Part shown: piece after piece, positions 5,413-25,558 of the stretch
How positions within the stretch are numbered: the stretch's first letter is position 1
Layout: every line of letters begins with the position of its first letter
From: a virus
Taxonomy: Duplodnaviria; Caudoviricetes
IMG/VR virus record: IMGVR_UViG_3300017739_000035
Coordinates: 1-36,534 of that record
Length of the DNA: 36,534 nucleotides
Strand: one strand, 5' to 3'
The notes under the pieces: generated by a model
Told to the model about the DNA's origin: nothing
Seen by the model: only the letters and a program-made list of their open reading frames with translations
The model's database searches: none
Program-made: the position numbers and the translations under genes

Positions 5413-6456
5413 TTAGATTATTTTTTCAAAATAATTGGCCGCATCAGACACTCTGCCTGTTTTAGCCACCCTTTGTTGAGCTTTCTTGACAGAAGATGTT
5501 GGCTTAACCCTATTAGAAGTTCCTGGTTTAGCTAATTTTGTTCTGGCCTTCGCTTGTGTTGGTTTTTTCTTTAATGCTGTTTTTTGCTTGTTATATAAAC
5601 TCGCATCTCTCAGCAAAAGAATAAAGCGATAGTCAGTTACAGCATTAACTTCTTCTTTAGTGAAACCTAGACTTTCAGCAGTTTTGGTTATGTTTGAAAT
5701 TTCTTCCATTTTAACCTTTTCATCTTTCCACTCCGGAAGAAGATCCGATAATTTCTGTTGGCTATCTAATAATTGTTTCTTGAGCAGTTCTTGCCTTTCA
5801 GCATTTTCTTGCTCTGTAATACGATTATATTCAGCATCTACAGACTTTATCTTATTAAGATGTTCGTCCCATTCTTGTTTTTTGGTCAGATACTCTACCT
5901 GGTCCTGTTCCCTTAAAGACTCCCAATTTGGTTCTTCTACAAAACCATTTTGTAATATAGTTTTGATTTTAGGTAACAATTCTCTGTACTCTGCTCTTTC
6001 ACGATTTATGTCAGACAAGTTATTATCAATTTCAGATTGCTTAGCATCTAAGTCTTTCCTTAATTGAGATAACTCCTGAGTTTTTCGTGTGTAATCACTA
6101 TTCCGACTGTAACCATTGATTAATTCTTCTTGGGTTACTTCTATTTCTTCGCCGCCAACTTTGACAACATAAGTTTGAAGTTCCTCAGTTTCATCAACTT
6201 CTACTTGATCTTCTTGTAATTCTTGTTCTTCTTCTTCTTCGGCTTCTTCTTCTATTTCAGCTTCGGTTTCGTCTTCTTGGATTTCTTCCTGTGCTTCTAT
6301 TTCAGTTTCAGCTTCCGTTTCATCAGAAACTTCTTCAACATCAGTATTTTCTTCGTCTGCTTCTTGCTCCTCAAGAGGAGTAAGCATTTCTTCAAATGCC
6401 TGTGTTGCTTTGCTTATATCAGTTTCAAAACCATTCGGCTTGGCGTTGTTGGTCAT
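5413..6456 (-). CDS. Capsid scaffolding protein
   Basis: Acidic N-terminus, VKVGGEEIEVTQEELINGYSRNSDYTRKTQEL motif, coiled coil; ATG 6456 preferred over GTG 6465 because AAGGTG SD precedes it. Confidence 0.85.
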   Translation of the reverse strand: MTNNAKPNGFETDISKATQAFEEMLTPLEEQEADEENTDVEEVSDETEAETEIEAQEEIQEDETEAEIEEEAEEEEEQELQEDQVEVDETEELQTYVVKVGGEEIEVTQEELINGYSRNSDYTRKTQELSQLRKDLDAKQSEIDNNLSDINRERAEYRELLPKIKTILQNGFVEEPNWESLREQDQVEYLTKKQEWDEHLNKIKSVDAEYNRITEQENAERQELLKKQLLDSQQKLSDLLPEWKDEKVKMEEISNITKTAESLGFTKEEVNAVTDYRFILLLRDASLYNKQKTALKKKPTQAKARTKLAKPGTSNRVKPTSSVKKAQQRVAKTGRVSDAANYFEKII

Positions 6457-6523
6457 ATTTTCCACCTTATATAAAATATTTGCGTTTATTTTATCTTAAA
6501 AATATACATTTTTGTTAAAATGT

Positions 6524-6787
6524 TTATTTAAAAGATCTAATTCTGTTGAATTGTGTTTTAGCAATTTTTCCTTTTTCTACAATAATTCTTAAATGTCTTT
6601 CGACTTCTGGAATAATTTTTATTGCCTGGTAAATTGCTTCTCTTAAATCCTGATCTTTTTCAACATCTGAATTTATCCACTTTGCAATATATTCAGCAGT
6701 TAAATTTTTAACTGCATCTTTGAATACATCACTATTTAATAATGCTTCTGCTTGTGTAGAAGCATCTATCTCCTTTTGTGTTGCCAT
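6524..6787 (-). CDS. Hypothetical head-region protein
   Basis: 87 aa, AGGA SD; AEALLNSDVF..RE motif often seen near portal/scaffold genes. Confidence 0.6.
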   Translation of the reverse strand: MATQKEIDASTQAEALLNSDVFKDAVKNLTAEYIAKWINSDVEKDQDLREAIYQAIKIIPEVERHLRIIVEKGKIAKTQFNRIRSFK

Positions 6788-6790
6788 ATA

Positions 6791-7012
6791 TTATCCTATT
6801 GCTTGGTAAATAATTTCTTGAAATAAAAATCCGGTAATTCCTAAAAAAATTGTAACTATGAATAATAATGTATTTCTGATTGTTTTATTTACTGATGCAA
6901 TACCATTTTCAATAGAGTCTAGTCTTCGATAATTTTCTTTCCAACGTTGATCGCATCTTGCTTCGTGTGCACTTAATCTTTTATCTACTTCTGTAACTGT
7001 AGCTCTTGCCAT
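6791..7012 (-). CDS. Small coiled-coil membrane protein (lysis accessory candidate)
   Basis: Likely start MARATV at 7012 (TAATG coupling); HEARC coiled coil and one C-terminal hydrophobic helix. Confidence 0.6.
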   Translation of the reverse strand: MARATVTEVDKRLSAHEARCDQRWKENYRRLDSIENGIASVNKTIRNTLLFIVTIFLGITGFLFQEIIYQAIG

Positions 7013-7395
7013 TAATAACTCCAAATATGCGGTCTTGGTCTATTGTTGTTTCCTTTATAAGTGTCTAAATGTATAAATCTGCTATTTCCTTTCTGATTAA
7101 CACCTATTCCGGTAAAGCCAAAACTAGATGCTAGTGTAACTATGTTAAATGCTTTTTCATGAGAACACAAAATATCTACAGCAAGTCCTAAAGTATGTAT
7201 GCCTGGAGTCTTTTTATTTACTTCTACAGGGTGTTTTAGACAACGATAAGCAGATGTAATAACAAAAGAAAAACCGCAACAAGTTCTGAGATCCTGTAGC
7301 TTTTGCAAAAAATCATAATCCATTTTTTGTTCGCCACAATGAGAACAGGCAAACTCCTCTGGTTTAAAATTCAAGAAATCCCAGTCCTTCATCAT
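7012..7395 (-). CDS. Peptidase M15A-family endolysin (Zn D-Ala-D-Ala peptidase fold)
   Basis: EFACSHCG, ITSAYRC, H.LGLAVDI and FIHLD zinc-ligand motifs. Confidence 0.88.
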   Translation of the reverse strand: MMKDWDFLNFKPEEFACSHCGEQKMDYDFLQKLQDLRTCCGFSFVITSAYRCLKHPVEVNKKTPGIHTLGLAVDILCSHEKAFNIVTLASSFGFTGIGVNQKGNSRFIHLDTYKGNNNRPRPHIWSY

Positions 7396-7564
7396 CTAAA
7401 GATTTTATGCTTTGCATATATTCGCCGACTATTCTTAAATCGCCATTCATTTTTTTTGCTTTTAATTTTGCTTCTCTAAGTGTTTTGGCAGTAATAATTG
7501 GTCCTTCATGTGTTTCTATTTTTCCTTCGATAGTCTGTATGTCTATCTCAGTTATAAACATCAT
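7364..7564 (-). CDS. Hypothetical protein
   Basis: 66 aa ORF overlapping both neighbours in the lysis cassette. Confidence 0.55.
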   Translation of the reverse strand: MMFITEIDIQTIEGKIETHEGPIITAKTLREAKLKAKKMNGDLRIVGEYMQSIKSLDDEGLGFLEF

Positions 7565-7941
7565 TTCGTATCTGTCCTCTTTAATTTGTCGTAAGATCTA
7601 AGTCCGGACATTCCTAACAATGCCATTAAAATTGTGGATAATTGTGAAAAATCAAACTCTGGCATTTCTATTTGTACTCCAGAAGTTTTAAGAGCAACTT
7701 CTATAATTGGAGCTAAGACGAAATGATAACCAAGTGCAAAACTACAAATCCACCCTACAGAAGGTCGCCAATTTCTTTGAAATGGAGATCCTTTTGCTTC
7801 TATTTTATTTACTTCTATTTGTGCAAGATTTGCTTGATGAAATAAAGTAGTTAGTTCGTGATCTAATTGTGCTTGTAAATCTTTATCTTTTACAAATTTA
7901 CTTACTATGTTGCTAACCGGCTTTAGTAAAGTTTCAATCAT
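7561..7941 (-). CDS. Holin of 3TMs (GTA holin family)
   Basis: AQIEVNKIEA...WRPSVGW...LLGMSGLRSYDK signature. Confidence 0.88.
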   Translation of the reverse strand: MIETLLKPVSNIVSKFVKDKDLQAQLDHELTTLFHQANLAQIEVNKIEAKGSPFQRNWRPSVGWICSFALGYHFVLAPIIEVALKTSGVQIEMPEFDFSQLSTILMALLGMSGLRSYDKLKRTDTK

Positions 7942-8293
7942 TTTTTCCCTCTAATATTTTTTGTAATTTTATAGCTTTTTCATGTGCTGAGTCTGCGTGT
8001 AAATCTTTATCAACTATTTTTTCTAATTTAAGACTTTCTATTTTGTTGTTACTAATATATCTCCAAGTATATCCGTCTTTTCCATACACACCAAATATAG
8101 TAGTGCTTAGACCAATCTTTATAATCATGGCCTGTTCGCCGTCTAATATTACTTTTTCGCCTTCGTTAAATTGTGAATTTAATTTGAATTTAAGGCCTTT
8201 AATAAATGAAATCGAATAGTCTTTGAGAGCTAATCCTGCTAAAACAGAAGCTATAAAAATAGATAATTCAAGATAATATTGCTCAAAATTCAC
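7934..8293 (-). CDS. Small MscS-like (mechanosensitive channel beta-domain) membrane protein
   Basis: One N-terminal TM helix, then FNEGEKVILDGEQAMIIKIGLSTT...YISNNKI, resembling the MS_channel middle domain; GTG start. Confidence 0.55.
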   Translation of the reverse strand: MNFEQYYLELSIFIASVLAGLALKDYSISFIKGLKFKLNSQFNEGEKVILDGEQAMIIKIGLSTTIFGVYGKDGYTWRYISNNKIESLKLEKIVDKDLHADSAHEKAIKLQKILEGKND

Positions 8294-8296
8294 TTT

Positions 8297-8458
8297 TCAT
8301 TTGCCAACTTTTTTCATAGCGATTTTGTGCGACTCTGTAAATGTTTTACCTCGTCGCATTAATCTTTTCATTTCGGCCATGTGTTTAGCCGTATGATGTT
8401 TGCTATGCCTTTTCAAAGTATCTTTTTGTCTTTGAGTAAGCTGTTTGGTTTTGTTCAT
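8297..8458 (-). CDS. Small basic protein (53 aa)
   Basis: Manual translation MNKTKQLTQRQKDTLKRHSKHHTAKHMAEMKRLMRRGKTFTESHKIAMKKVGK; abuts the upstream stop. Confidence 0.65.
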   Translation of the reverse strand: MNKTKQLTQRQKDTLKRHSKHHTAKHMAEMKRLMRRGKTFTESHKIAMKKVGK

Positions 8459-8512
8459 TTATTTTTTTTTCTTCTTTTTTTTCTTTTCAGGTTTTCCGTA
8501 ATATCCTGGCAT
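8459..8512 (-). CDS. Poly-lysine micro-peptide (17 aa)
   Basis: MPGYYGKPEKKKKKKKK; TAATG-coupled upstream and directly followed by the next ATG. Confidence 0.5.
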   Translation of the reverse strand: MPGYYGKPEKKKKKKKK

Positions 8513-8628
8513 TATTTTTTCCTCTTTTTATTTTTAAGTTTTTTAAAATCTGCTCCGGTAATTTTATTTCTAGGCGGAGCAACTCTAGCAATCTTTTTTT
8601 GTTTTTTAGATAATTTTTTTCCTGGCAT
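8512..8628 (-). CDS. Small basic protein (38 aa)
   Basis: MPGKKLSKKQKKIARVAPPRNKITGADFKKLKNKKRKK; starts 1 nt after the upstream stop. Confidence 0.65.
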   Translation of the reverse strand: MPGKKLSKKQKKIARVAPPRNKITGADFKKLKNKKRKK

Positions 8629-8629
8629 T

Positions 8630-8812
8630 TTATTTCTTTTTCTTTTTAGGTTTTTTTGCCGTCTTGGCCGCCTGTTTAAATTGTTTAGCCGTTGGAGCTC
8701 CTTTGCTTCCTGGCTTTCTCATTTTCTCTTTAGATCCAGCTTTTATTCTTTTGCGTTTAGCATGAATATTAGCGTACAGTCCTTTCTTTTTTTTCATAGA
8801 TACCTCTACCAT
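8630..8812 (-). CDS. Small basic protein
   Basis: GLYANIHAKRKRIKAGSKEKMRKPGSKGAPT motif; true start may be the internal ATG after GAGG. Confidence 0.7.
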   Translation of the reverse strand: MVEVSMKKKKGLYANIHAKRKRIKAGSKEKMRKPGSKGAPTAKQFKQAAKTAKKPKKKKK

Positions 8813-9084
8813 TTAGTGCGGTTGGCCCAATAGGCCGCCGACATTTTACCTTTAGATATGTTTTTGGCATGACGAGCTTTGAAGGATTTTCTTCGAGCTT
8901 TATCTTTTTTGCTCTTAGGATTTTTTCCTGCTCCGCTTACGCCTTGCTGACCAAATCTTATAGTCTTTATTTTACTACCTTCTTTAGCAACTACAACATG
9001 AGATTTTGTTGGGTGTCCCGGAGTTCTTTTTGGTTTGTTGTAACCAGATACTCCTGCCCTTGTTAATCTTGAGTCTTTTGACAT
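8806..9084 (-). CDS. Small basic conserved phage protein
   Basis: GYNKPKRTP, KTIRFGQQG, RKSFKARH, SAAYWA motifs. Confidence 0.75.
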   Translation of the reverse strand: MSKDSRLTRAGVSGYNKPKRTPGHPTKSHVVVAKEGSKIKTIRFGQQGVSGAGKNPKSKKDKARRKSFKARHAKNISKGKMSAAYWANRTKW

Positions 9085-11389: not shown

Positions 11390-12922
11390 TTATCCTACTC
11401 TATAGATTTTGGATTTTATTGGTCGTTTAAAATTATACCCCATAAATGAGCTTCCGCCACCAAGAACGGCAGAAGTAGAAGCAAAAGTTAAAGCTAATGC
11501 GTCTGCTTTGTCTGGAGATTTGATACCTCTCTTTTTCATTTCTTCTTTGCTTTCTAATTTTATTTTTCCGGTAGATGTATATTTATATATTGGCGACACT
11601 AATTGTTGTACTAATTCTTCATCACTAGGCATAAAAACATCTCTACCAGATAGCCATTCTTTAATTTTAAACCATAGTTCAGCTCGGAGATTTAAGTAAT
11701 TCTTTTTACTAGAAGGGGACTCTCCTACATTAACACCGATAACCGGCAAGTTTAGTTCAGATAATCTATCTACTACGCCAGATCCCACACCGATTACATC
11801 TATTAATATTTCGCTTGGTTTTTCTAATGTAGTGCAATCATCATATTCATTTTTAATAGCTCCACATAACGCCATTAGATCCATAGAATTATATGTTTTC
11901 ATCTCTAATACAGAGTTTCCTTGTCTTTTGCATAGTGCAGAATTGTCGCCACCAAACCTGGCTACATCAATTCCCCAAACTATCGGCTCAGAAGCAGTTA
12001 AATCTACTTCTCGCATAACAGCAGAACGACATAATTCCATAGGTATAACTGTGTCATTGTCATAACTAGGAAACTCGCCTAATACTTCTACTCTAGCAAC
12101 AGTAGAGTCTTCTCCATATTGCTCTAACATACTTTGAAATAGCTTTTGATCTGTGCCTTCTACAGTTCTTGAGTCTATTTGTTCATTTTTCCAAAAAGAT
12201 CTTTTGCCGTGAAAGCTATCAAAAAACGGCCCACTATTCCTTCTAGGGTTTGAAAATGTGAACCAATACCTGTCTTTTGTCGGCTCAGAGAAAAATCCCT
12301 CAGAAACGCTGTAAATCGGTCCTGGAATACCTGACGCTTCGTCCATAATTAAACAAACTCCATAACTAGAATGAATACCAGCAAATGCGTCTGGATTTTC
12401 TTCTGACCATAATTGAGCTTGTGCGTAATAATAGCCGGTGTCTATTTTTAAATCTTTCTGTAGTGCTTCTTCAAACCACTTTGCAGGTTTTATTGTTGTT
12501 GCTGTTTTTTCCCACCAATGATTATTTACAGAAAGAGTTAGCCACTTTCCTAGTTCGGCCCATGTTCTTGATCTTAATTGTTGCTCGGTGTTTGCAGTTA
12601 CAATTATGGTAGATCCTAGTCTAGTAGATAAAAACCATAGTATTAACCAAGACACTAAAGCAGACTTGCCAATACCACGACCACTAGCAACTGCTAGTCT
12701 ATACATTTCCGGAAAATCTACTGTTTCATTTCTAGCTATATGATTTGCAATATCTTTTAAAACTTTTTCTTGCCACTTTCTAGGACCTTTAAAATGCTCA
12801 AGAGGGGTATCTTCTTGCTCCCAAGAAAAACAATATTTAACAAAATTGTATGGATTGTCTTTGATGTTTAAAGACCAAAGATCTGACATTAATTGTTTTT
12901 CTTCTTCTGGCTTGTATTTCAT
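11390..12922 (-). CDS. terL: Terminase large subunit
   Basis: Walker A ASGRGIGKS, Walker B LIMDEASG, SNP coupling motif, nuclease GIDVARFGGD and SPDKADA. Confidence 0.95.
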   Translation of the reverse strand: MKYKPEEEKQLMSDLWSLNIKDNPYNFVKYCFSWEQEDTPLEHFKGPRKWQEKVLKDIANHIARNETVDFPEMYRLAVASGRGIGKSALVSWLILWFLSTRLGSTIIVTANTEQQLRSRTWAELGKWLTLSVNNHWWEKTATTIKPAKWFEEALQKDLKIDTGYYYAQAQLWSEENPDAFAGIHSSYGVCLIMDEASGIPGPIYSVSEGFFSEPTKDRYWFTFSNPRRNSGPFFDSFHGKRSFWKNEQIDSRTVEGTDQKLFQSMLEQYGEDSTVARVEVLGEFPSYDNDTVIPMELCRSAVMREVDLTASEPIVWGIDVARFGGDNSALCKRQGNSVLEMKTYNSMDLMALCGAIKNEYDDCTTLEKPSEILIDVIGVGSGVVDRLSELNLPVIGVNVGESPSSKKNYLNLRAELWFKIKEWLSGRDVFMPSDEELVQQLVSPIYKYTSTGKIKLESKEEMKKRGIKSPDKADALALTFASTSAVLGGGSSFMGYNFKRPIKSKIYRVG

Positions 12923-13017: not shown

Positions 13018-13122
13018 TTTAAAAAAAATTAAAAAAATTTATCTGAACAGTATATCGTACATACACCCCCGATTTGCAAAAAAGGGGGGATATGGCCCGT
13101 TCTTTTTGTTTTTGCTTTTTGT

Positions 13123-13749
13123 TCATTCGTTATGATCTCGGGCCGGATCAGATCCGCTTATGATCTCTTTATGATCTCGGGCCGGATCTGCCTTTTTATT
13201 TTGTGGCCCGTTATGATCCGGGATCTTGCTTGTACCTGGTAAAGCTCTATTCTTTTTAGGGAGTCCGCCTGGTTGTTTAGATCCTTGATCTTTGGCCCTT
13301 GTACCTGGTAAAGCTTTATTCGGGATCGTAACGGGATCTATACCTGGTAAAGCGTCGCTTCCGGGAAGATCAATAATTCTGGCCCGTGCATCTTTTAGAA
13401 CAGATCCTAAGTTGAGATCTACATTTAAAGAAAGATCCTTTTCCGCCCATTGTCCTTGCTCCCCCCGATTAGATAAGAAGAATTTAACGGCGTGTATATT
13501 CGGATCTTCTTTAGTCGCAGATCTAAACAAGCTATTTGCTACGGCACTAAGAGCTTTACTGCGTCCCGCTTCCATTCTACTTGCAAAACTAGCAGATCTG
13601 ATTTTATTCCTGTGAAGCGTATGCCATGAAACGCCCAAGTTATCAGCAATCTGCTTCTCGCTTAATCCCAAACCTGCTAGTCGTTCAACTTCATCAAGAT
13701 CTATATTTAATCTTTTACGGCCACCTTTATTGATCTTTTGATCTTTCAT
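13123..13749 (-). CDS. terS: Terminase small subunit with repetitive C-terminal extension
   Basis: HTH (VERLAGLGLSEKQIADNLGVSWHTL), VANSLF..A, AVKFFLSNR; upstream of terL. Confidence 0.8.
   Translation of the reverse strand: MKDQKINKGGRKRLNIDLDEVERLAGLGLSEKQIADNLGVSWHTLHRNKIRSASFASRMEAGRSKALSAVANSLFRSATKEDPNIHAVKFFLSNRGEQGQWAEKDLSLNVDLNLGSVLKDARARIIDLPGSDALPGIDPVTIPNKALPGTRAKDQGSKQPGGLPKKNRALPGTSKIPDHNGPQNKKADPARDHKEIISGSDPARDHNE
13130..13353. repeat. Direct repeats within the terS 3' end
   Basis: TTATGATCTCGGGCCGGATC at 13130 and 13169; TACCTGGTAAAGC at 13233, 13302 and 13341; extra TTATGATC at 13158 and 13211. Confidence 0.9.
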
Positions 13750-13795
13750 GGCCCTATTTTAATCTATTATTCTTTTTTATATGTCTTCATTTGTC

Positions 13796-13824
13796 TTGCT
13801 ATGTCCTTTTATATTCTTTAAAAT
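13796..13824 (+). promoter_or_regulatory. Sigma70-type promoter of the plus-strand (probably early) operon
   Basis: TTGCTA 13796-801, 17-nt spacer, TAAAAT 13819-24; ACGGAG SD and ATG 13850 downstream. Confidence 0.65.
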
Positions 13825-13849
13825 GGGTTTTTTTAACGGAGAATTAGAA

Positions 13850-14056
13850 ATGCAACAAACAAAAATAAAGCAGATCAAAGATGAAATCTTGGATCTATTA
13901 AGTAAGGCGGAGATCATAAAGGCCGTTTATGAGATCCACAAAGAAAAGGAAGATCTTGACAAGTGCATCAAGTACCGGGAAGGCCTTGAAAATATCTCAG
14001 AAAAACTTTGGGATCTTCATGAACAATACGAACAATTAAAGAAGGCCCAACAATGA
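13850..14056 (+). CDS. Hypothetical coiled-coil protein (68 aa)
   Basis: Start MQQTKIK with GGAG SD; shorter than the track ORF. Confidence 0.65.
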   Translation: MQQTKIKQIKDEILDLLSKAEIIKAVYEIHKEKEDLDKCIKYREGLENISEKLWDLHEQYEQLKKAQQ

Positions 14057-14172
14057 ACACTTTTAGACATAGACAGAAAAAACAAATAATGGCGGAGCTG
14101 TATTTTTATAGATATATGATGTTCGCTATCTTAGGTTTTTGTATTGGTTATTTTGTAGGTGGCCTAATATGA
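14053..14172 (+). CDS. Small single-TM membrane peptide (39 aa)
   Basis: MNTFRHRQKKQIMAELYFYRYMMFAILGFCIGYFVGGLI; ATGA overlaps at both ends. Confidence 0.6.
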   Translation: MNTFRHRQKKQIMAELYFYRYMMFAILGFCIGYFVGGLI

Positions 14173-14816
14173 GTAAAATTTTAATTGGTTGCGAAACTTC
14201 CGGGATCGTTAGAAATGCTTTTCTCGATCTGGGCCATGACGCATGGAGTTGTGATCTTCTGCCTAGTGATGATCTTACAAACAGACATATTCAAGATGAC
14301 ATTAGAAATGTTCTTGAATATGAATGTTGGGATCTGTTAATGGTGGCACACCCGCCATGTACCCGTCTTTGCAATTCTGGAGTTCGTTGGCTAGACAATC
14401 CACCGCCGAATAAAACAGTTGAGCAAATGTACCAAGAGCTTGAAGAAGGAACTTCTTTATTTTCGGATCTTTGGAACTGTGAAGTTCCACACCTGGCAAT
14501 TGAAAATCCAATAATGCACAAACACGCAAAAGAAAGGATTCGCAATTTTGAGAAACAATCTCAAACAATCCAACCTTATGAATTTGCAGATCATATAAAC
14601 GCTGAAGACAATGTTTCTAAAAGGACTTGCCTTTGGTTGAAGAACTTGCCCTTATTAAGAAAGACGGGATCTTTGACTAAAGAAACCGCAAGACACGATA
14701 TTCATAATTGCCCACCTAGTAAAGATCGTTGGAAGATCAGAAGCAAATTTCATGTAGGAATTGCGAAAGCTATGGCGGATCAATGGACCGAATTTTTAAA
14801 CCAAACGGAGAAATAA
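14169..14816 (+). CDS. DNA (cytosine-5) methyltransferase, short phage type
   Basis: ILIGCETSG (motif I-like), WSCD, DDI, catalytic HPPC (motif IV), IENP (motif VI), KRTCLW, GIAKAMADQW; start at MSKIL by ATGA coupling. Confidence 0.8.
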   Translation: MSKILIGCETSGIVRNAFLDLGHDAWSCDLLPSDDLTNRHIQDDIRNVLEYECWDLLMVAHPPCTRLCNSGVRWLDNPPPNKTVEQMYQELEEGTSLFSDLWNCEVPHLAIENPIMHKHAKERIRNFEKQSQTIQPYEFADHINAEDNVSKRTCLWLKNLPLLRKTGSLTKETARHDIHNCPPSKDRWKIRSKFHVGIAKAMADQWTEFLNQTEK

Positions 14817-14818
14817 AA

Positions 14819-14998
14819 ATGAAATGTAATAACTGTTATGACGACGGCGTTTATATGCACAAAGGCAAATTTAAAAAATGTTCTTGTGAAATAGGCCATT
14901 CAATTAATAAATCTTATGTAGAAGATCTCAATGCGGATCTTTTCTTAAACAATCTATGGAGATCTAAAAATGTTAAATTCAGAAACCAGAACTTATAA
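14819..14998 (+). CDS. Small Cys-rich protein (possible zinc finger)
   Basis: MKCNNCYDDG...KKCSC; AACGGAG SD. Confidence 0.6.
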   Translation: MKCNNCYDDGVYMHKGKFKKCSCEIGHSINKSYVEDLNADLFLNNLWRSKNVKFRNQNL

Positions 14999-15659
14999 TT
15001 TTATAAAGTGTCCGTCTTGCGACTCAAAAAGCGAGATCTTAAAACTAGAATACAAAACTATCAATCCGGAATTTTTGCAGGATCAAGAAGCGGAGAGAGA
15101 TCCTAAGAAGATCCTAAAAAAGACGGCCCGACTTGATACGAAGGCCGTTAGACATTTTGGGCCTGCAATCCATTTCTGCAATTCTTGTGGTCAAGATCTT
15201 GGAAGGGATATTGAAAAATACAAATATCAGGGAACTTTTAAAAAAGGATCTTTAGATGATTATTATGATCTAGGATCTAATAAGATCATAAAGCATACAG
15301 AAGATTTTTTAAGACGCTGTGATCTGACCTTACATAATGAATTTTTAGAAAAAGAATATTGGTTTGAAGAAGTAGATAATTATTATCCAATGAATGAAGA
15401 CGGAGAAGAAGACGACGACGGAGAATATCCGGAAATTTATCAGGCCTTCATTGTTGATTATTGCTTTTTTAAAGATCTGCAAGAAGCAGACGAAGTGGTT
15501 TCTGATAGTGGCCATTATATCTGGTGTCGCAGTTCTTTTGGCCAAGCAATATCTCTGGATCGAGTCATACAGGGTATTGCTTATAAATTTGCAGATCCGG
15601 AGAAACTCCCGGATCTTTGGACGCTTGAAAAAGCAGAACGCCTTGAAGATCTAAAATGA
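14970..15659 (+). CDS. Hypothetical protein with two CxxC motifs and an acidic C-terminal half
   Basis: CPSC and CNSC; EIYQAFIV...YIWCRSSFGQAISLD; GGAG SD. Confidence 0.75.
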   Translation: MLNSETRTYNFIKCPSCDSKSEILKLEYKTINPEFLQDQEAERDPKKILKKTARLDTKAVRHFGPAIHFCNSCGQDLGRDIEKYKYQGTFKKGSLDDYYDLGSNKIIKHTEDFLRRCDLTLHNEFLEKEYWFEEVDNYYPMNEDGEEDDDGEYPEIYQAFIVDYCFFKDLQEADEVVSDSGHYIWCRSSFGQAISLDRVIQGIAYKFADPEKLPDLWTLEKAERLEDLK

Positions 15660-15844
15660 CAAATCTTAAAATAAATGATTATGTCCAGATCTCCGGAAGG
15701 GATCTATTCGGGATTTATTGCGGATCTTACAAAGGAAAGGCCCGGATCTTTTTAGATGAACCGATCATTAAAAAAGGACGGGCCAAATATATCTATTTAA
15801 CTAACTATCAAAACATAAGGAGTGCAGACAAATATGAAAACTAG
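15656..15844 (+). CDS. Hypothetical protein
   Basis: 62 aa, ATGA overlap. Confidence 0.6.
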   Translation: MTNLKINDYVQISGRDLFGIYCGSYKGKARIFLDEPIIKKGRAKYIYLTNYQNIRSADKYEN

Positions 15845-16037
15845 CGGAAAGCTATTTTTAAATAGCCATATTAAATATAAAGGTGTTTGGATCAAGTGTT
15901 TAACATTACAGGCCAATGAGAAACAGAAATTTTATTGTCCTATGTTAGATCCTTACAATGAAATTTATTTTCAACACAAGTACCAAGCCAAAAGACTAAT
16001 TAATAAACTAATGGAGAAAAACAAATGGAAAAAATAA
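15834..16037 (+). CDS. Hypothetical protein
   Basis: ATG start MKTSG after AAGGAG; start uncertain (track uses GTG 15822). Confidence 0.55.
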   Translation: MKTSGKLFLNSHIKYKGVWIKCLTLQANEKQKFYCPMLDPYNEIYFQHKYQAKRLINKLMEKNKWKK

Positions 16038-16321
16038 ACCATGATGAATGGAGTAATAAATATCGTGAAGCATCTACGGACCTTCTGGCCCGTTTTTTAG
16101 TAGATCGGTATATACCAACCACAAAAGCAAATCAGATCTCAAAAGCTATTAAAGATCTTCATACGGCCTTCTGCCAAATAGATCCGCCACGCCTGGATTA
16201 TATCGCTGATAATCTACCGGAGTTATTTTATACGGCCTGTTTATATACAGATATTCACGGAGAGCCAAACAAGGATCTTAAAAAGGTTTTATCTGAATAC
16301 CGCAGGGAGAAGATCAAATGA
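16025..16321 (+). CDS. Hypothetical protein
   Basis: 98 aa, GGAG SD. Confidence 0.65.
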   Translation: MEKINHDEWSNKYREASTDLLARFLVDRYIPTTKANQISKAIKDLHTAFCQIDPPRLDYIADNLPELFYTACLYTDIHGEPNKDLKKVLSEYRREKIK

Positions 16322-16581
16322 CAGAAGGAATTTTTGTAATGGGTGGCCTGGTTATGTTTTTTGCATTAGCCGGGTACATCTTTGACAGCTTTTGGTCAGT
16401 CAAAAAAATTACCAAAAAACAATTAGATCCTTTTGTCCATGAACTCTGGATCAATTACCAGAAAGAATATGATAAAGGCACTTGGCCTGGATCTAAAAAA
16501 AAGTACCAAACAAAAGAAGAATTTATAAACAATAACTTACCTTTCATCATCAATAAAGCGACTGAGAAAGGTTTAATTTAA
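16318..16581 (+). CDS. Hypothetical protein with N-terminal TM anchor
   Basis: GIFVMGGLVMFFALAGYIF hydrophobic segment; ATGA overlap. Confidence 0.65.
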   Translation: MTEGIFVMGGLVMFFALAGYIFDSFWSVKKITKKQLDPFVHELWINYQKEYDKGTWPGSKKKYQTKEEFINNNLPFIINKATEKGLI

Positions 16582-16594
16582 CGGAGAAAAAAAT

Positions 16595-16753
16595 ATGAAT
16601 AAATTACCTAAAACAATAGTAGCTAATCAAATAACTATCCAATGGAATGACAGTCCGAAATTAGTGGTCCTTATGCACGATATGCCGGAGTATGTCAGGC
16701 AACCATTTGATGAATGGTTAAGCGAGATAGAAGCACAGGAGAACGCAAAATGA
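16595..16753 (+). CDS. Hypothetical protein (52 aa)
   Basis: MNKLPKTIVANQITIQWNDS...EAQENAK; AACGGAG SD. Confidence 0.65.
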   Translation: MNKLPKTIVANQITIQWNDSPKLVVLMHDMPEYVRQPFDEWLSEIEAQENAK

Positions 16754-17019
16754 CTGTAAGAGATATAAAAGACGGATTGATAAATAAAGTTGTTGAAGAC
16801 TTTACCGACTATGCAATTCACACACACTATTATTTTTCTAACGGCGTAGATCTTATAGTTTGTAGGTCGCTTTATCCGTATTGCTTTTTATTTTTAAGAA
16901 CTAATAAAACTTATACTTTTTGTACGGAAGATGAATTACCCAAGTTTATTCATAAGGAGATCTCACTCCAAGCATTAAAAGAGTATGAAGCATTTATACA
17001 ATCTCAGGGAATACTATGA
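16750..17019 (+). CDS. Hypothetical protein
   Basis: Start MTVRDIK with AGGAG SD and ATGA overlap. Confidence 0.65.
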   Translation: MTVRDIKDGLINKVVEDFTDYAIHTHYYFSNGVDLIVCRSLYPYCFLFLRTNKTYTFCTEDELPKFIHKEISLQALKEYEAFIQSQGIL

Positions 17020-17168
17020 CAGATTATTTTAGAAAAATGGCCAATCTAAAAAAGGCCTTACGCAGATCCAAAAATATTGAATTTCAAAATATGTGGATCA
17101 AACAGATCAACCGACTAAAACATAAAAGGCATTTATATGAAAAAAGATGTCAGGAGAAAAGCCAATGA
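17016..17168 (+). CDS. Small basic hypothetical protein (50 aa)
   Basis: MTDYFRKMANLKKALRRSKN...; ATGA overlaps at both ends. Confidence 0.55.
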   Translation: MTDYFRKMANLKKALRRSKNIEFQNMWIKQINRLKHKRHLYEKRCQEKSQ

Positions 17169-17428
17169 AACTATATCAAATTGATTATATAAATTCTTAC
17201 GGAAAAAAAGAATTTGTTGCTATTACAAACGATCCTAATGAATGGTTGAAAGATAATAACAAGCAAAGAATAGGCGACGGAGAAAGGCCAGAAAAAATTA
17301 CCGATTTTGAAATACACCTTCTTTATTACCACTACGATAAGAAAAAGAAAAAAACTTATAAAATTTACAATACTAGATCTGCAAGATCTGAAATAAAAAC
17401 GCATATTTATAACAAGGAGAATGATTAA
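17165..17428 (+). CDS. Hypothetical protein
   Basis: Start MKLYQIDY with AGGAG SD. Confidence 0.65.
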   Translation: MKLYQIDYINSYGKKEFVAITNDPNEWLKDNNKQRIGDGERPEKITDFEIHLLYYHYDKKKKKTYKIYNTRSARSEIKTHIYNKEND

Positions 17429-17604
17429 TGAATGATGAAGATATGTTAAGACTAATCATGTGGTTAAATGATTTACCAGAATACAGAAAAAAACAAATTG
17501 CTATTTTATTAATGAGTACCTGTTTAAATACTTTAGCTCAAGACGAGTTAGCCGGTTTTATGTCTGGCCTGGCCCGTGAAATAGTAGAAAAAAAACCAGA
17601 ATAA
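17428..17604 (+). CDS. Hypothetical protein (58 aa)
   Basis: MNDEDMLRLIMWLNDLPE...; AAGGAG SD, TAATG coupling. Confidence 0.6.
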   Translation: MNDEDMLRLIMWLNDLPEYRKKQIAILLMSTCLNTLAQDELAGFMSGLAREIVEKKPE

Positions 17605-17633
17605 TAATAAAATTAAAACTCAAAGGAGATTAT

Positions 17634-17954
17634 ATGAAAGTAAAAATACAAGAAACTATTTACCACCATAAAGAAAACGACAAAGGTTATCACAAAGATA
17701 AAACCATAGTTGAAGTTGCAGAGAATGGTAATCTAAAAATGATTGAAACTATAGATGTGCAAGAAAAATGGTTTGATACAGAAGCAGAAAGAGATACTGC
17801 CTATCTGGAAAGTTATGATAACTGCGTAGAAGCAAAAACCTATATTTTAGGAAACAAAGACTTTGCTTTTTTTGAATTTGTAGAAGATCTGGAAGAAGTA
17901 GAAAAAGAAATACAAACTCAAAATGAAAATTATGGGAAGGTCATAGATGTCTAA
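17634..17954 (+). CDS. Acidic hypothetical protein
   Basis: 106 aa, AAGGAG SD, Glu/Asp-rich. Confidence 0.7.
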   Translation: MKVKIQETIYHHKENDKGYHKDKTIVEVAENGNLKMIETIDVQEKWFDTEAERDTAYLESYDNCVEAKTYILGNKDFAFFEFVEDLEEVEKEIQTQNENYGKVIDV

Positions 17955-24368: not shown

Positions 24369-24465
24369 ACACAATGGCAAATTAACTAAAGAAACTTTAC
24401 AAAGACTTCAAATACATATTAATAAGCGTACAAAAGCAGGAGAAAAACATGGAAGAAAAAGATAG
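24358..24465 (+). CDS. Small basic peptide (35 aa)
   Basis: MKTKHNGKLTKETLQRLQ...; AGGAG SD. Confidence 0.45.
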   Translation: MKTKHNGKLTKETLQRLQIHINKRTKAGEKHGRKR

Positions 24466-25558
24466 GCATATAGCCGATAAAAAATTCAATAAATTAAAAA
24501 CTAGACATAGAAACGGATCTAAATATTATTATTTGATTTGGCACAACAAAGGAAAAAAAATAAAAAGAAAAATAGAAGCTCGTTATCCAGATGAAAGTAT
24601 TACCGAGATACGCAAAAGAGCTATAAAAATTTATTCTCATTACAAAGATATAGAAGAAGGTTTAGTAGAAGATCCAAAAGACGCAACAGAAATTAAGTAT
24701 GATGTTTTGTTTTCTGAATACATAAAAGACTGTAAGGCAAGAGATGTAAAAGAAACTACAACAAAACAATATCAATCTTTATATCAAAATTATGCAAAAA
24801 AATATCTTGGATCTATTTATGTAAATGAATTAACAAGAAAAGATATTAAAAATGTTTTTGCATTTATTTCTAAAAAAAGTAAATCACAAGCAAATAAATT
24901 TCTTAAATTCATAGTAGCTAGTTTAAATTTTGCTATTGATGAAGAATGTTATGGTATAGAAAATAATATAGCCAGAAGTATAAAAGGCAATCCAGAAAAG
25001 AAAATTACTACTAGCTATACCGAAAAAGAAAAGTTAAAAGTATTTAAAAAGCTAAATGAATTAGAAAACTTTGAACCAGGAAAGATAAGGTCTATATCTT
25101 TTATATGGTTACTCATACTAACAGGAGCTAGAAAAAGCGAAATAGCAAATGCACAAAGATCTTGGATAAAAGATAATAAAATTGTAATACCTTTTGACCA
25201 ATATAAGACAGGTAAAAAAACCGGTAAAGACAGAATTATTTATTTGTCAGATCATGCTATAAAAATTATAAATAAAATTATAGAAGTCTGTCCTAATGAA
25301 AAAACAATTACAGGTATAAAATCTCCGGAAAAAACTTGGGATAGAATTAGGAAGGAATGTGATTGTCCGCATCTAAGATTACATGATCTTAGGCACTCAT
25401 TCGCTACATATTGTTTATCAGCAGGTTTAGGCCATAGACAAGTAGGAAATTTATTAGGACATCAGAGCTTATCTTCTATGCAAAGATACGGAGAGATTAG
25501 ACAAGAAGTTTCTAAAAATAATGTAGAGTTAGCTAACAAGCTGATTTTGCTTAATTAA
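24449..25558 (+). CDS. int: Tyrosine recombinase/integrase
   Basis: Catalytic residues intact: LTGARKSE (R), YKTGKK (K), LHDLRHS (HxxR), LLGH, QRY (Y). Confidence 0.93.
   Translation: MEEKDRHIADKKFNKLKTRHRNGSKYYYLIWHNKGKKIKRKIEARYPDESITEIRKRAIKIYSHYKDIEEGLVEDPKDATEIKYDVLFSEYIKDCKARDVKETTTKQYQSLYQNYAKKYLGSIYVNELTRKDIKNVFAFISKKSKSQANKFLKFIVASLNFAIDEECYGIENNIARSIKGNPEKKITTSYTEKEKLKVFKKLNELENFEPGKIRSISFIWLLILTGARKSEIANAQRSWIKDNKIVIPFDQYKTGKKTGKDRIIYLSDHAIKIINKIIEVCPNEKTITGIKSPEKTWDRIRKECDCPHLRLHDLRHSFATYCLSAGLGHRQVGNLLGHQSLSSMQRYGEIRQEVSKNNVELANKLILLN

Follow-up and report, generated by a model that had tools for sequence, protein, structure and literature searches.

Avoidance of recognition sites is generally treated as the default response of phages to motif-reading defences. 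It can be concentrated in the DNA that is injected first, as in Murciavirus; restriction-site-free leading regions of this sort also occur in T5, T7 and plasmids. In the accessible part of the Murciavirus study (PMC12455610), the bias against Mme2I sites affects just one variable early module, the part of the genome that enters first, with sites kept elsewhere, and Type I sensitivity is set solely by the sites in the early injected region. The host systems DISARM and DndFGH/Ssp, as described in the portions of the literature available, read self from modification, so that marked sites could help and unmarked sites hurt; the same portions contain no phage-side counter-strategy that multiplies sites. 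Here we analyse a single contig of 36,534 bases (34% GC), the entire IMG/VR record IMGVR_UViG_3300017739_000035 of a marine phage, which is referred to as the window and encodes none of these systems, the 54 open reading frames (ORFs) scanned including no dnd-type gene. It carries an island (13090..16500) saturated with GATC and GGCC, and more weakly with CCGG and CCCG/CGGG. The bias is likewise limited to a variable early module at what is predicted to be the first-entering end, but its sign is reversed relative to Murciavirus: 4-bp palindromes are about 5-fold up, and both signs segregate on one phage backbone. Depletion in first-injected DNA is known. The island is a leading-region site bias with the sign reversed, the inverse of avoidance, with the opposite allele in the same population. 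In the literature searched, which held few subscription papers and no supplements and was screened by listings and abstract openings, no account of phages enriching sites at their ends or in early genes was found, and the sole on-topic match reports depletion.

A first-pass annotation, made from the sequence by eye, had put about 70 GATC, 28 GGCC and 14 CCGG in the island and about 7 GATC in the neighbouring gene of the terminase large subunit TerL (11390..12922, minus strand). Counting gave 73, 28 and 14 for 13090–16500, where 15.4, 6.2 and 6.7 are expected from the rest of the genome, and 7 for terL, which lies outside the island. The enrichment had been called several-fold, which is correct for GATC and GGCC. 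CCGG is raised just about 2-fold and has a local Markov observed/expected ratio (O/E) of 1.0. A maximum-likelihood two-change-point fit to GATC and GGCC returned 13090 and 16500, in agreement with the abrupt start that had been proposed, and the proposed decay by about 17.4 kb is seen as 8.8 GATC/kb in the tail (16501..17414, still within the interchangeable module described below) and 5.1 beyond it. GATC density reaches 39 per kb in the densest block (13057..13415), which covers the C-terminal tail of the terminase small subunit TerS and holds 14 GATC, 6 GGCC, 4 CCGG and 10 CCCG/CGGG; from there up to 16500 it is 15–22 per kb. The median gap between GATC, GGCC and CCGG sites in the island is 19 bp, and GATC spacing is without a dominant period, with several pairs 11–12 bp apart. 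CCCG/CGGG is a further island motif that was missed in the first reading (23 vs 2.5 expected). Many of these sites overlap the other motifs, as in GGCCCG and CGGGATC, and 8 vs 1.7 expected are left once those motifs are masked. A longer single motif was rejected, since GATC flanks are like those of the backbone and CGATCG is absent, and so was a degenerate GRYC motif (GACC/GGTC 5 vs 8.1); GAAC/GTTC is not raised (21 vs 19.6). The densest block carries short direct repeats (23 nt twice, 13 nt three times), and tandem repeats were dismissed as the source of the sites, as they account for only a few, in the TerS tail.

That the enrichment reflects a constraint on the DNA, acting across genes on both strands, had been suggested earlier, and synonymous shuffling, opportunity counts and maintenance under turnover agree with this. 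In 300 within-gene synonymous shuffles, GATC reached 41.0±3.4 (max 53) vs 73 observed and GGCC 9.9±2.2 (max 16) vs 25 observed in genes, whereas CCGG (14 vs 10.9±2.0, max 16) is within the null. The 73 GATC of the island genes equal the count for the whole island, and the intergenic leader (14057–14168) has none, so essentially all sites are coding. We further counted synonymous opportunities, i.e. places where a synonymous change could yield the motif, in the island, in 20 backbone genes and in a sister allele (locus L082). Realised opportunities were 73/110, 120/581 and 2/104 for GATC, 25/66, 42/558 and 0/55 for GGCC, and 14/74, 53/557 and 1/51 for CCGG, respectively. For GATC the Fisher p is 2e-20 for the island excess and 1e-7 for the sister-allele deficit; the GGCC and CCGG deficits of the sister allele are weak alone (p 0.025 and 0.07). 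The control palindromes AGCT (12% in the island vs 22% in the backbone), GTAC (17% vs 11%), TGCA (27% vs 16%) and CATG (28% vs 19%) show no comparable rise and no flip between alleles. An 8-kb stretch was recovered in one contig in 4/4 sequencing runs with one base difference, although these runs are possibly the window's own source, and an independent copy (G003) that is 91% identical carries the same island. As far as tested, the island is therefore not an assembly artefact. It is a real, maintained and unusual feature.

The opposite state was found at the same place in close relatives. Among the TerL relatives (80 loci kept of 525 found), L001, L007 and L204 have the sequence of the window itself. 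The island of the independent copy G003 (L014/L081) is 90.8% identical to that of the window. Four others (L004, L006, L012, L082) match the window at about 95% until 13091 and then continue in another module, and L082, L083 and L197 rejoin the window sequence at 17414. The 4.3 kb between these points (13091..17414), comprising terS and early genes, is thus an interchangeable module, of which the sister version is nearly motif-free and without the methyltransferase gene discussed below. The backbones of window and sisters are 88–98% identical with similar or somewhat lower site counts; TerL is 97% identical over the part covered, and terL about 95% identical in nucleotides between the alleles. 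In six loci covering up to 3.4 kb, the depleted module holds 1–3 GATC, 0–4 GGCC, 0–1 CCGG and 0–1 CCCG/CGGG; the sister allele set against the 23 CCCG/CGGG of the island has 0. In alignable stretches the window has 21 GATC and 8 GGCC vs 2 and 2 in the sister allele. Examples are 15665–15792, where the window has 5 GATC, 2 GGCC and 2 CCGG and the homologous sister sequence none, and the homologous terS stretch (8 GATC vs 0). The sister allele fits leading-region site avoidance directly (GATC 2/104 vs backbone 120/581). The island had been expected to track terS in relatives; the close sisters, with the opposite, depleted state at this position, gave a more informative result. Both TerS types are common, with 72 and 51 cluster members. 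The depleted module of L082, L083 and L006 is about 3-fold richer in ACGA/TCGT, CGAA and AACG than the backbone, and the ACGA/TCGT richness is possibly that allele's own mark.

Comparison of the window with G003 showed that the site density is held under divergence. Across 303 substitutions, 63/73 GATC sites were kept, compared with 88/138 sites of its anagrams; GATC was gained 14 times and lost 13 times. When the observed substitutions were placed randomly, matched for base and codon position, in 1000 runs of a neutral simulation, 52±4 GATC (max 64) and 17±3 GGCC (max 27) were expected vs 71 and 26 observed. Since density is held despite turnover, the island is maintained; a passive donor signature would decay.

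The left boundary of the island coincides with a conserved element consisting of a C-tract, a G-tract and an AT-rich stretch (13050..13091, minus strand), and density is highest there. A strict pattern of this kind lies at most 250 bp upstream of terL in 78/149 loci, with looser forms in many others, and the element is found 60–180 bp upstream of terL. A described parallel is the Sinorhizobium phage phiM5 (MF074189.1), which has a related TerL (37%), a similar layout, an integrase and the same kind of element just upstream of terL. In its GenBank record, terL is immediately preceded by an annotated terminal repeat of 357 bp, and its last genome bases are an element of this kind. phiM5 differs in encoding a DNA polymerase and in having no GATC, GGCC or CCGG excess at the right end. 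By this likeness the physical end of the virion genome is predicted near 13050–13060, the element could mark termini across this uncultured family, and, if the genome is laid out as in phiM5, the densest block (13057–13415) would be a terminal repeat and occur at both ends. Being adjacent to terS, with early genes that read inward, the island appears compatible with first-injected DNA. In T7-like phages the left genome end enters first, and in the T7-like P-SSP7 the methyltransferase homolog is gene 2, at the left end.

We tentatively favour the explanation that the block is likely the first DNA into the cell and that its host-modified sites are read as 'self' by a defence silenced by modification, while giving it somewhat less than an even chance of being right. 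The observations behind it are the enrichment, its maintenance, the opposite allele and the boundary at the conserved element. The element would be the virion end, as in phiM5, and the inward direction of the early operon suggests that the island end would enter first. The previous host would methylate or phosphorothioate the island motifs, and the next host would have a DISARM-like or DndFGH-like sensor that modified DNA represses and unmodified motifs provoke. At the entering end, unmarked sites would then be a liability and marked sites a pass, and the population would hold a site-removing and a site-multiplying allele on one backbone. Under ordinary restriction-modification a methylated site is neutral, not useful; the saturated allele requires sites to be beneficial, and systems in which modification is the off-switch could make them so. 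In the accessible text, DISARM is repressed by methylation (PMC9142583), plasmid entry is lowered by more unmethylated motifs and raised by methylation (10.1101/2021.12.28.474362), phosphorothioate motifs include GATC and GGCC and 6mA-GATC can stand in for the sulfur mark against DndFGH (PMC6435447), and modification density has been proposed as a self signal (PMC8053081). The two alleles suggest two opposite routes past host defences, hiding sites vs displaying them as modified 'self' tags, and the selection of the same motifs in opposite directions at one locus in one phage population is a natural paired experiment. A wider version appears rather unlikely in its entirety: an 'epigenetic passport', in which the leading end is recoded for the maximum of host-modifiable sites, the marks of the last host silence entry-sensing defences of the next, and the state is balanced with a site-free 'stealth' allele and has weaker versions in other marine lineages. 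If the self-tag explanation is true, the island would be a passive counter-defence needing no protein, would test modification density as a self signal for DISARM and Dnd-type systems, and would allow host methylomes and genome ends to be read from terminal motif excess in the sequences of uncultured phages.

Several points weigh against the self-tag explanation. The terminus prediction rests on phiM5, with a TerL identity of just 37%, the direction of entry is an assumption, and there is no smooth gradient, 15001–16500 being as dense as 13416–14000. The strong state is rare: an excess of GATC/GGCC at p<0.001 is found in 1/39 dereplicated relatives (those with enough backbone, G003 being collapsed into the window), and this allele is the one. 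Neither saturated genome contains TGATCA, for which 6.7 and 8.5 copies were expected, and the window has no GGATCC (17 expected; G003 has 6). Hexamers that overlap GATC are therefore not dependably protected by whatever mark it may carry, which fits partial or no marking. In the accessible parts of the literature, published DISARM motifs differ from GATC and GGCC, and CCGG/CCCG is not among the phosphorothioate motifs of the review PMC6435447. The host search was negative as well, with no close prophage among 32 genome-contig loci (best TerL 49%), no attachment site suggested by tRNA or Rfam matches, and only short chance matches in 19/401 sampled genomes.

Alternatively, a DNA-binding protein of the host, SeqA-like or a methyltransferase, might dock on the sites and shield the entering end or pull it in, or the sites might act as a sink for site-reading nucleases. 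The peak of 39 GATC/kb at the predicted end and the GATC pairs 11–12 bp apart would suit such a role, which is nevertheless unlikely: three to four motifs shift together both ways, which one binding protein would not explain, spacing has no dominant period, and an unmodified decoy in essential genes would be cut. The island also lacks the clustered DnaA boxes of an oriC-like or T5 iss-like DnaA/GATC element, with no consensus box in 13090–17414 and 4 in the whole window; a preprint on T5 (10.1101/866236) is without any occurrence of GATC. Control of terminase cutting at the genome end by methylation, as at the P1 pac site within pacA, is a quite doubtful alternative for the island as a whole. 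There are 22 GATC in terS and the densest block adjoins the predicted cut, recalling the GATC cluster inside the small-terminase gene of P1. The P1 pac consists of seven TGATCR in 161 bp (PMC10028697, accessible part), whereas the window array spans 3.4 kb and several motifs, continues 3 kb past terS through early genes, and has TGATCR 0 times in terS and once in the island. The sister, with 97% identical TerL and the same end element, lacks the array and has 0 GATC vs 8 in the homologous terS stretch; packaging control could be valid for the first 350 bp only. Dense methylation could also silence or time the early operon and terS in a lysogen as an epigenetic switch, given that an integrase is present and the island spans the divergent terS and early operon and fades at the operon's end. 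We consider this improbable, as essentially all sites are coding, the leader has none, and the sister allele manages without sites; its active depletion would not be expected if the sites were regulatory. A neutral origin, by transfer of the module from a GATC-rich donor or by biased repair, has a very small probability in our view. The module does have sharp recombination borders and is slightly GC-richer, and in 37 dereplicated relatives the 3 kb on the terS side and the backbone are unlike in composition (median CpG ratio 0.92 vs 0.66, uncorrected for strand and gene class). A neutral origin is opposed by the density held against turnover (71 vs 52±4), an island that obeys the avoidance list of the backbone, gains and losses that include transversions and multi-base changes, a lack of donor-like genomes among homolog loci, and a sister allele biased oppositely at the same place.

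The remaining rival is the phage's own enzyme. The first-pass annotation had suggested that the C5 methyltransferase embedded in the island may act on the array. The gene in question (14169..14816, plus strand) encodes a 215-aa protein of PHROG 757. The motifs PPC and ENP are invariant in 32 sequences, in line with C5 catalysis. The structural model (pLDDT 91.8) has DNMT3A/B catalytic domains as top Foldseek matches (E about 1e-5), with M.HaeIII at rank 49, and the protein is without a Pfam or NCBIfam match. We thus consider it a predicted minimal C5-methyltransferase fold, closest to the DNMT3 catalytic domain. Such an enzyme might mark the sites, render them safe and so allow them to be multiplied as a tag. 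The gene co-occurs with the saturated allele in this species and is absent from all depleted-allele loci tested, and the predicted fold has a minimal recognition region that would make relaxed specificity plausible. Homologs were found at 80 loci, 77 of them long enough for the scan, and 10/77 have a local GGCC-rich window, but the GATC-rich window occurs in 0/77 and many are without any CCGG. In the L210 clade (TerL 76%), the terS-side 3 kb contains a mean of 18 GGCC (17.7) and 22 CCGG in 3 loci with the gene vs 13 GGCC (13.1) and 17 CCGG in 14 loci without it, counted on loci that were not dereplicated and with 10/27 omitted as too short or CCGG-free; the late genes of this clade, which is also without GCGC and CGCG, have about 4 GGCC and 8 CCGG. 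The rise without the gene, and homolog loci without a GATC island, imply that the gene is neither sufficient nor necessary, and a genome-wide methylase accounts for site tolerance, not local saturation. The embedded methyltransferase is probably not the cause of the island, contrary to what had been proposed, and marking by it as the origin of the array has little to recommend it. The PHROG 757 methyltransferases of P-SSP7 (gp12) and of phi3LM21 (phi3LM21_p25, the closest cultured homolog) are 43–53% identical to that of the window and share its motifs, whereas their loci have no GATC island. No specificity was found for the PHROG 757 family, and the main text of PMC5537653 omits phi3LM21_p25.

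The whole window is nearly without GCGC, CGCG, ACGT, CCATC, GAWTC, GGATG, GTCTC and GCWGC. ACCGT, CTCTTC, GGATCC and TGATCA are likewise near-absent. The backbone mildly favours all three palindromes (GATC 134 vs 95) and the island follows its avoidance list. The lack of many restriction-type sites genome-wide indicates that the phage sequence responds strongly to site-reading host systems. GAWTC occurs 3 times vs 42 expected, whereas GASTC is retained (42). A SAR11 pattern reported in the accessible part of PMC8919816 resembles this combination; a SAR11 host call was not made because many other restriction-type sites are avoided too. Matches to a 16-mer repeat (52 loci) were taken as chance, all except the phage's kin having at least 48% GC. 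Some cluster members of TerL, TerS, integrase and methyltransferase are on contigs of 60–62 kb, longer than the phage, and these may be prophage junctions revealing the host.

Further site biases were seen in relatives. At the matching end of five cultured or annotated phages, GATC, GGCC and CCGG are not in excess. Milder signs than in the window are seen in the L210 clade and in L154. The latter, a marine phage with a different organisation, has a 2–3 kb block rich in GGCC, CCGG and CGCG (5700–8900) upstream of a methyltransferase homolog and between a G-tract and terS, with GGCCGCAG repeats; similar blocks are present in L135, L137, L142–L144, L150 and L151. In the L154 genes from G-tract to terS, GGCC opportunities are realised at 17/78 vs 10/245 elsewhere, for one locus chosen post-scan and with GGCC-bearing repeats nearby. 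L263, L267, L278, L282 and L283 have TerS tails and early regions rich in GCGC and CGCG, lack CCGG, and mostly peak a second time within terL. For L018, L263, L267, L282 and L283, local trinucleotide content explains the ends rich in GCGC and CGCG (O/E about 1), and these were rejected as the same phenomenon. The DNA fetched for L011 (21.5 kb) and L010 (79% TerL identity) has zero GATC, GGCC, CCGG, CGCG and ACGT. In the terS-side 3 kb, the CpG ratio is higher than in the backbone in 31/37 relatives, and CA is lower, being higher in 3/37, in a comparison uncorrected for strand and gene class.

The phage, a podophage predicted to be temperate, encodes an SU10-type portal, a block of primase/helicase and Sak4 genes and a tyrosine integrase (24449..25558, plus strand). 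In line with a marine phage, the stretch is present in 20 runs (seawater, marine or viral) that belong to 16 studies and are all flagged as potential sources of it, and no cultured phage is close (best TerL identity 51%). TerS (13123..13749, minus strand; 208 aa) is 57% identical to that of the sister allele. The divergent operon of small early genes (13850–17954, plus strand) begins with a small ORF (13850..14056), followed by the methyltransferase gene, a small Cys-rich ORF (14819..14971), an acidic protein of 229 aa (14970..15659), four small ORFs within the island (15656..16581) and four in its decaying tail (16595..17428). Scanning for promoters gave no more than chance would (22 vs 18.3±4.7). 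Atlas matches were <0.9, and those from PADLOC and NCBIfam were weak and under any cut-off. The C-terminal domain of the acidic protein (15240–15596, 119 aa, PHROG 26364; model pLDDT 88.9) is common to both alleles. An Ocr-like identity was rejected for it, with no PDB match at E<=0.001 and only uncharacterised viral proteins matched. This shared acidic domain is a candidate early counter-defence protein.

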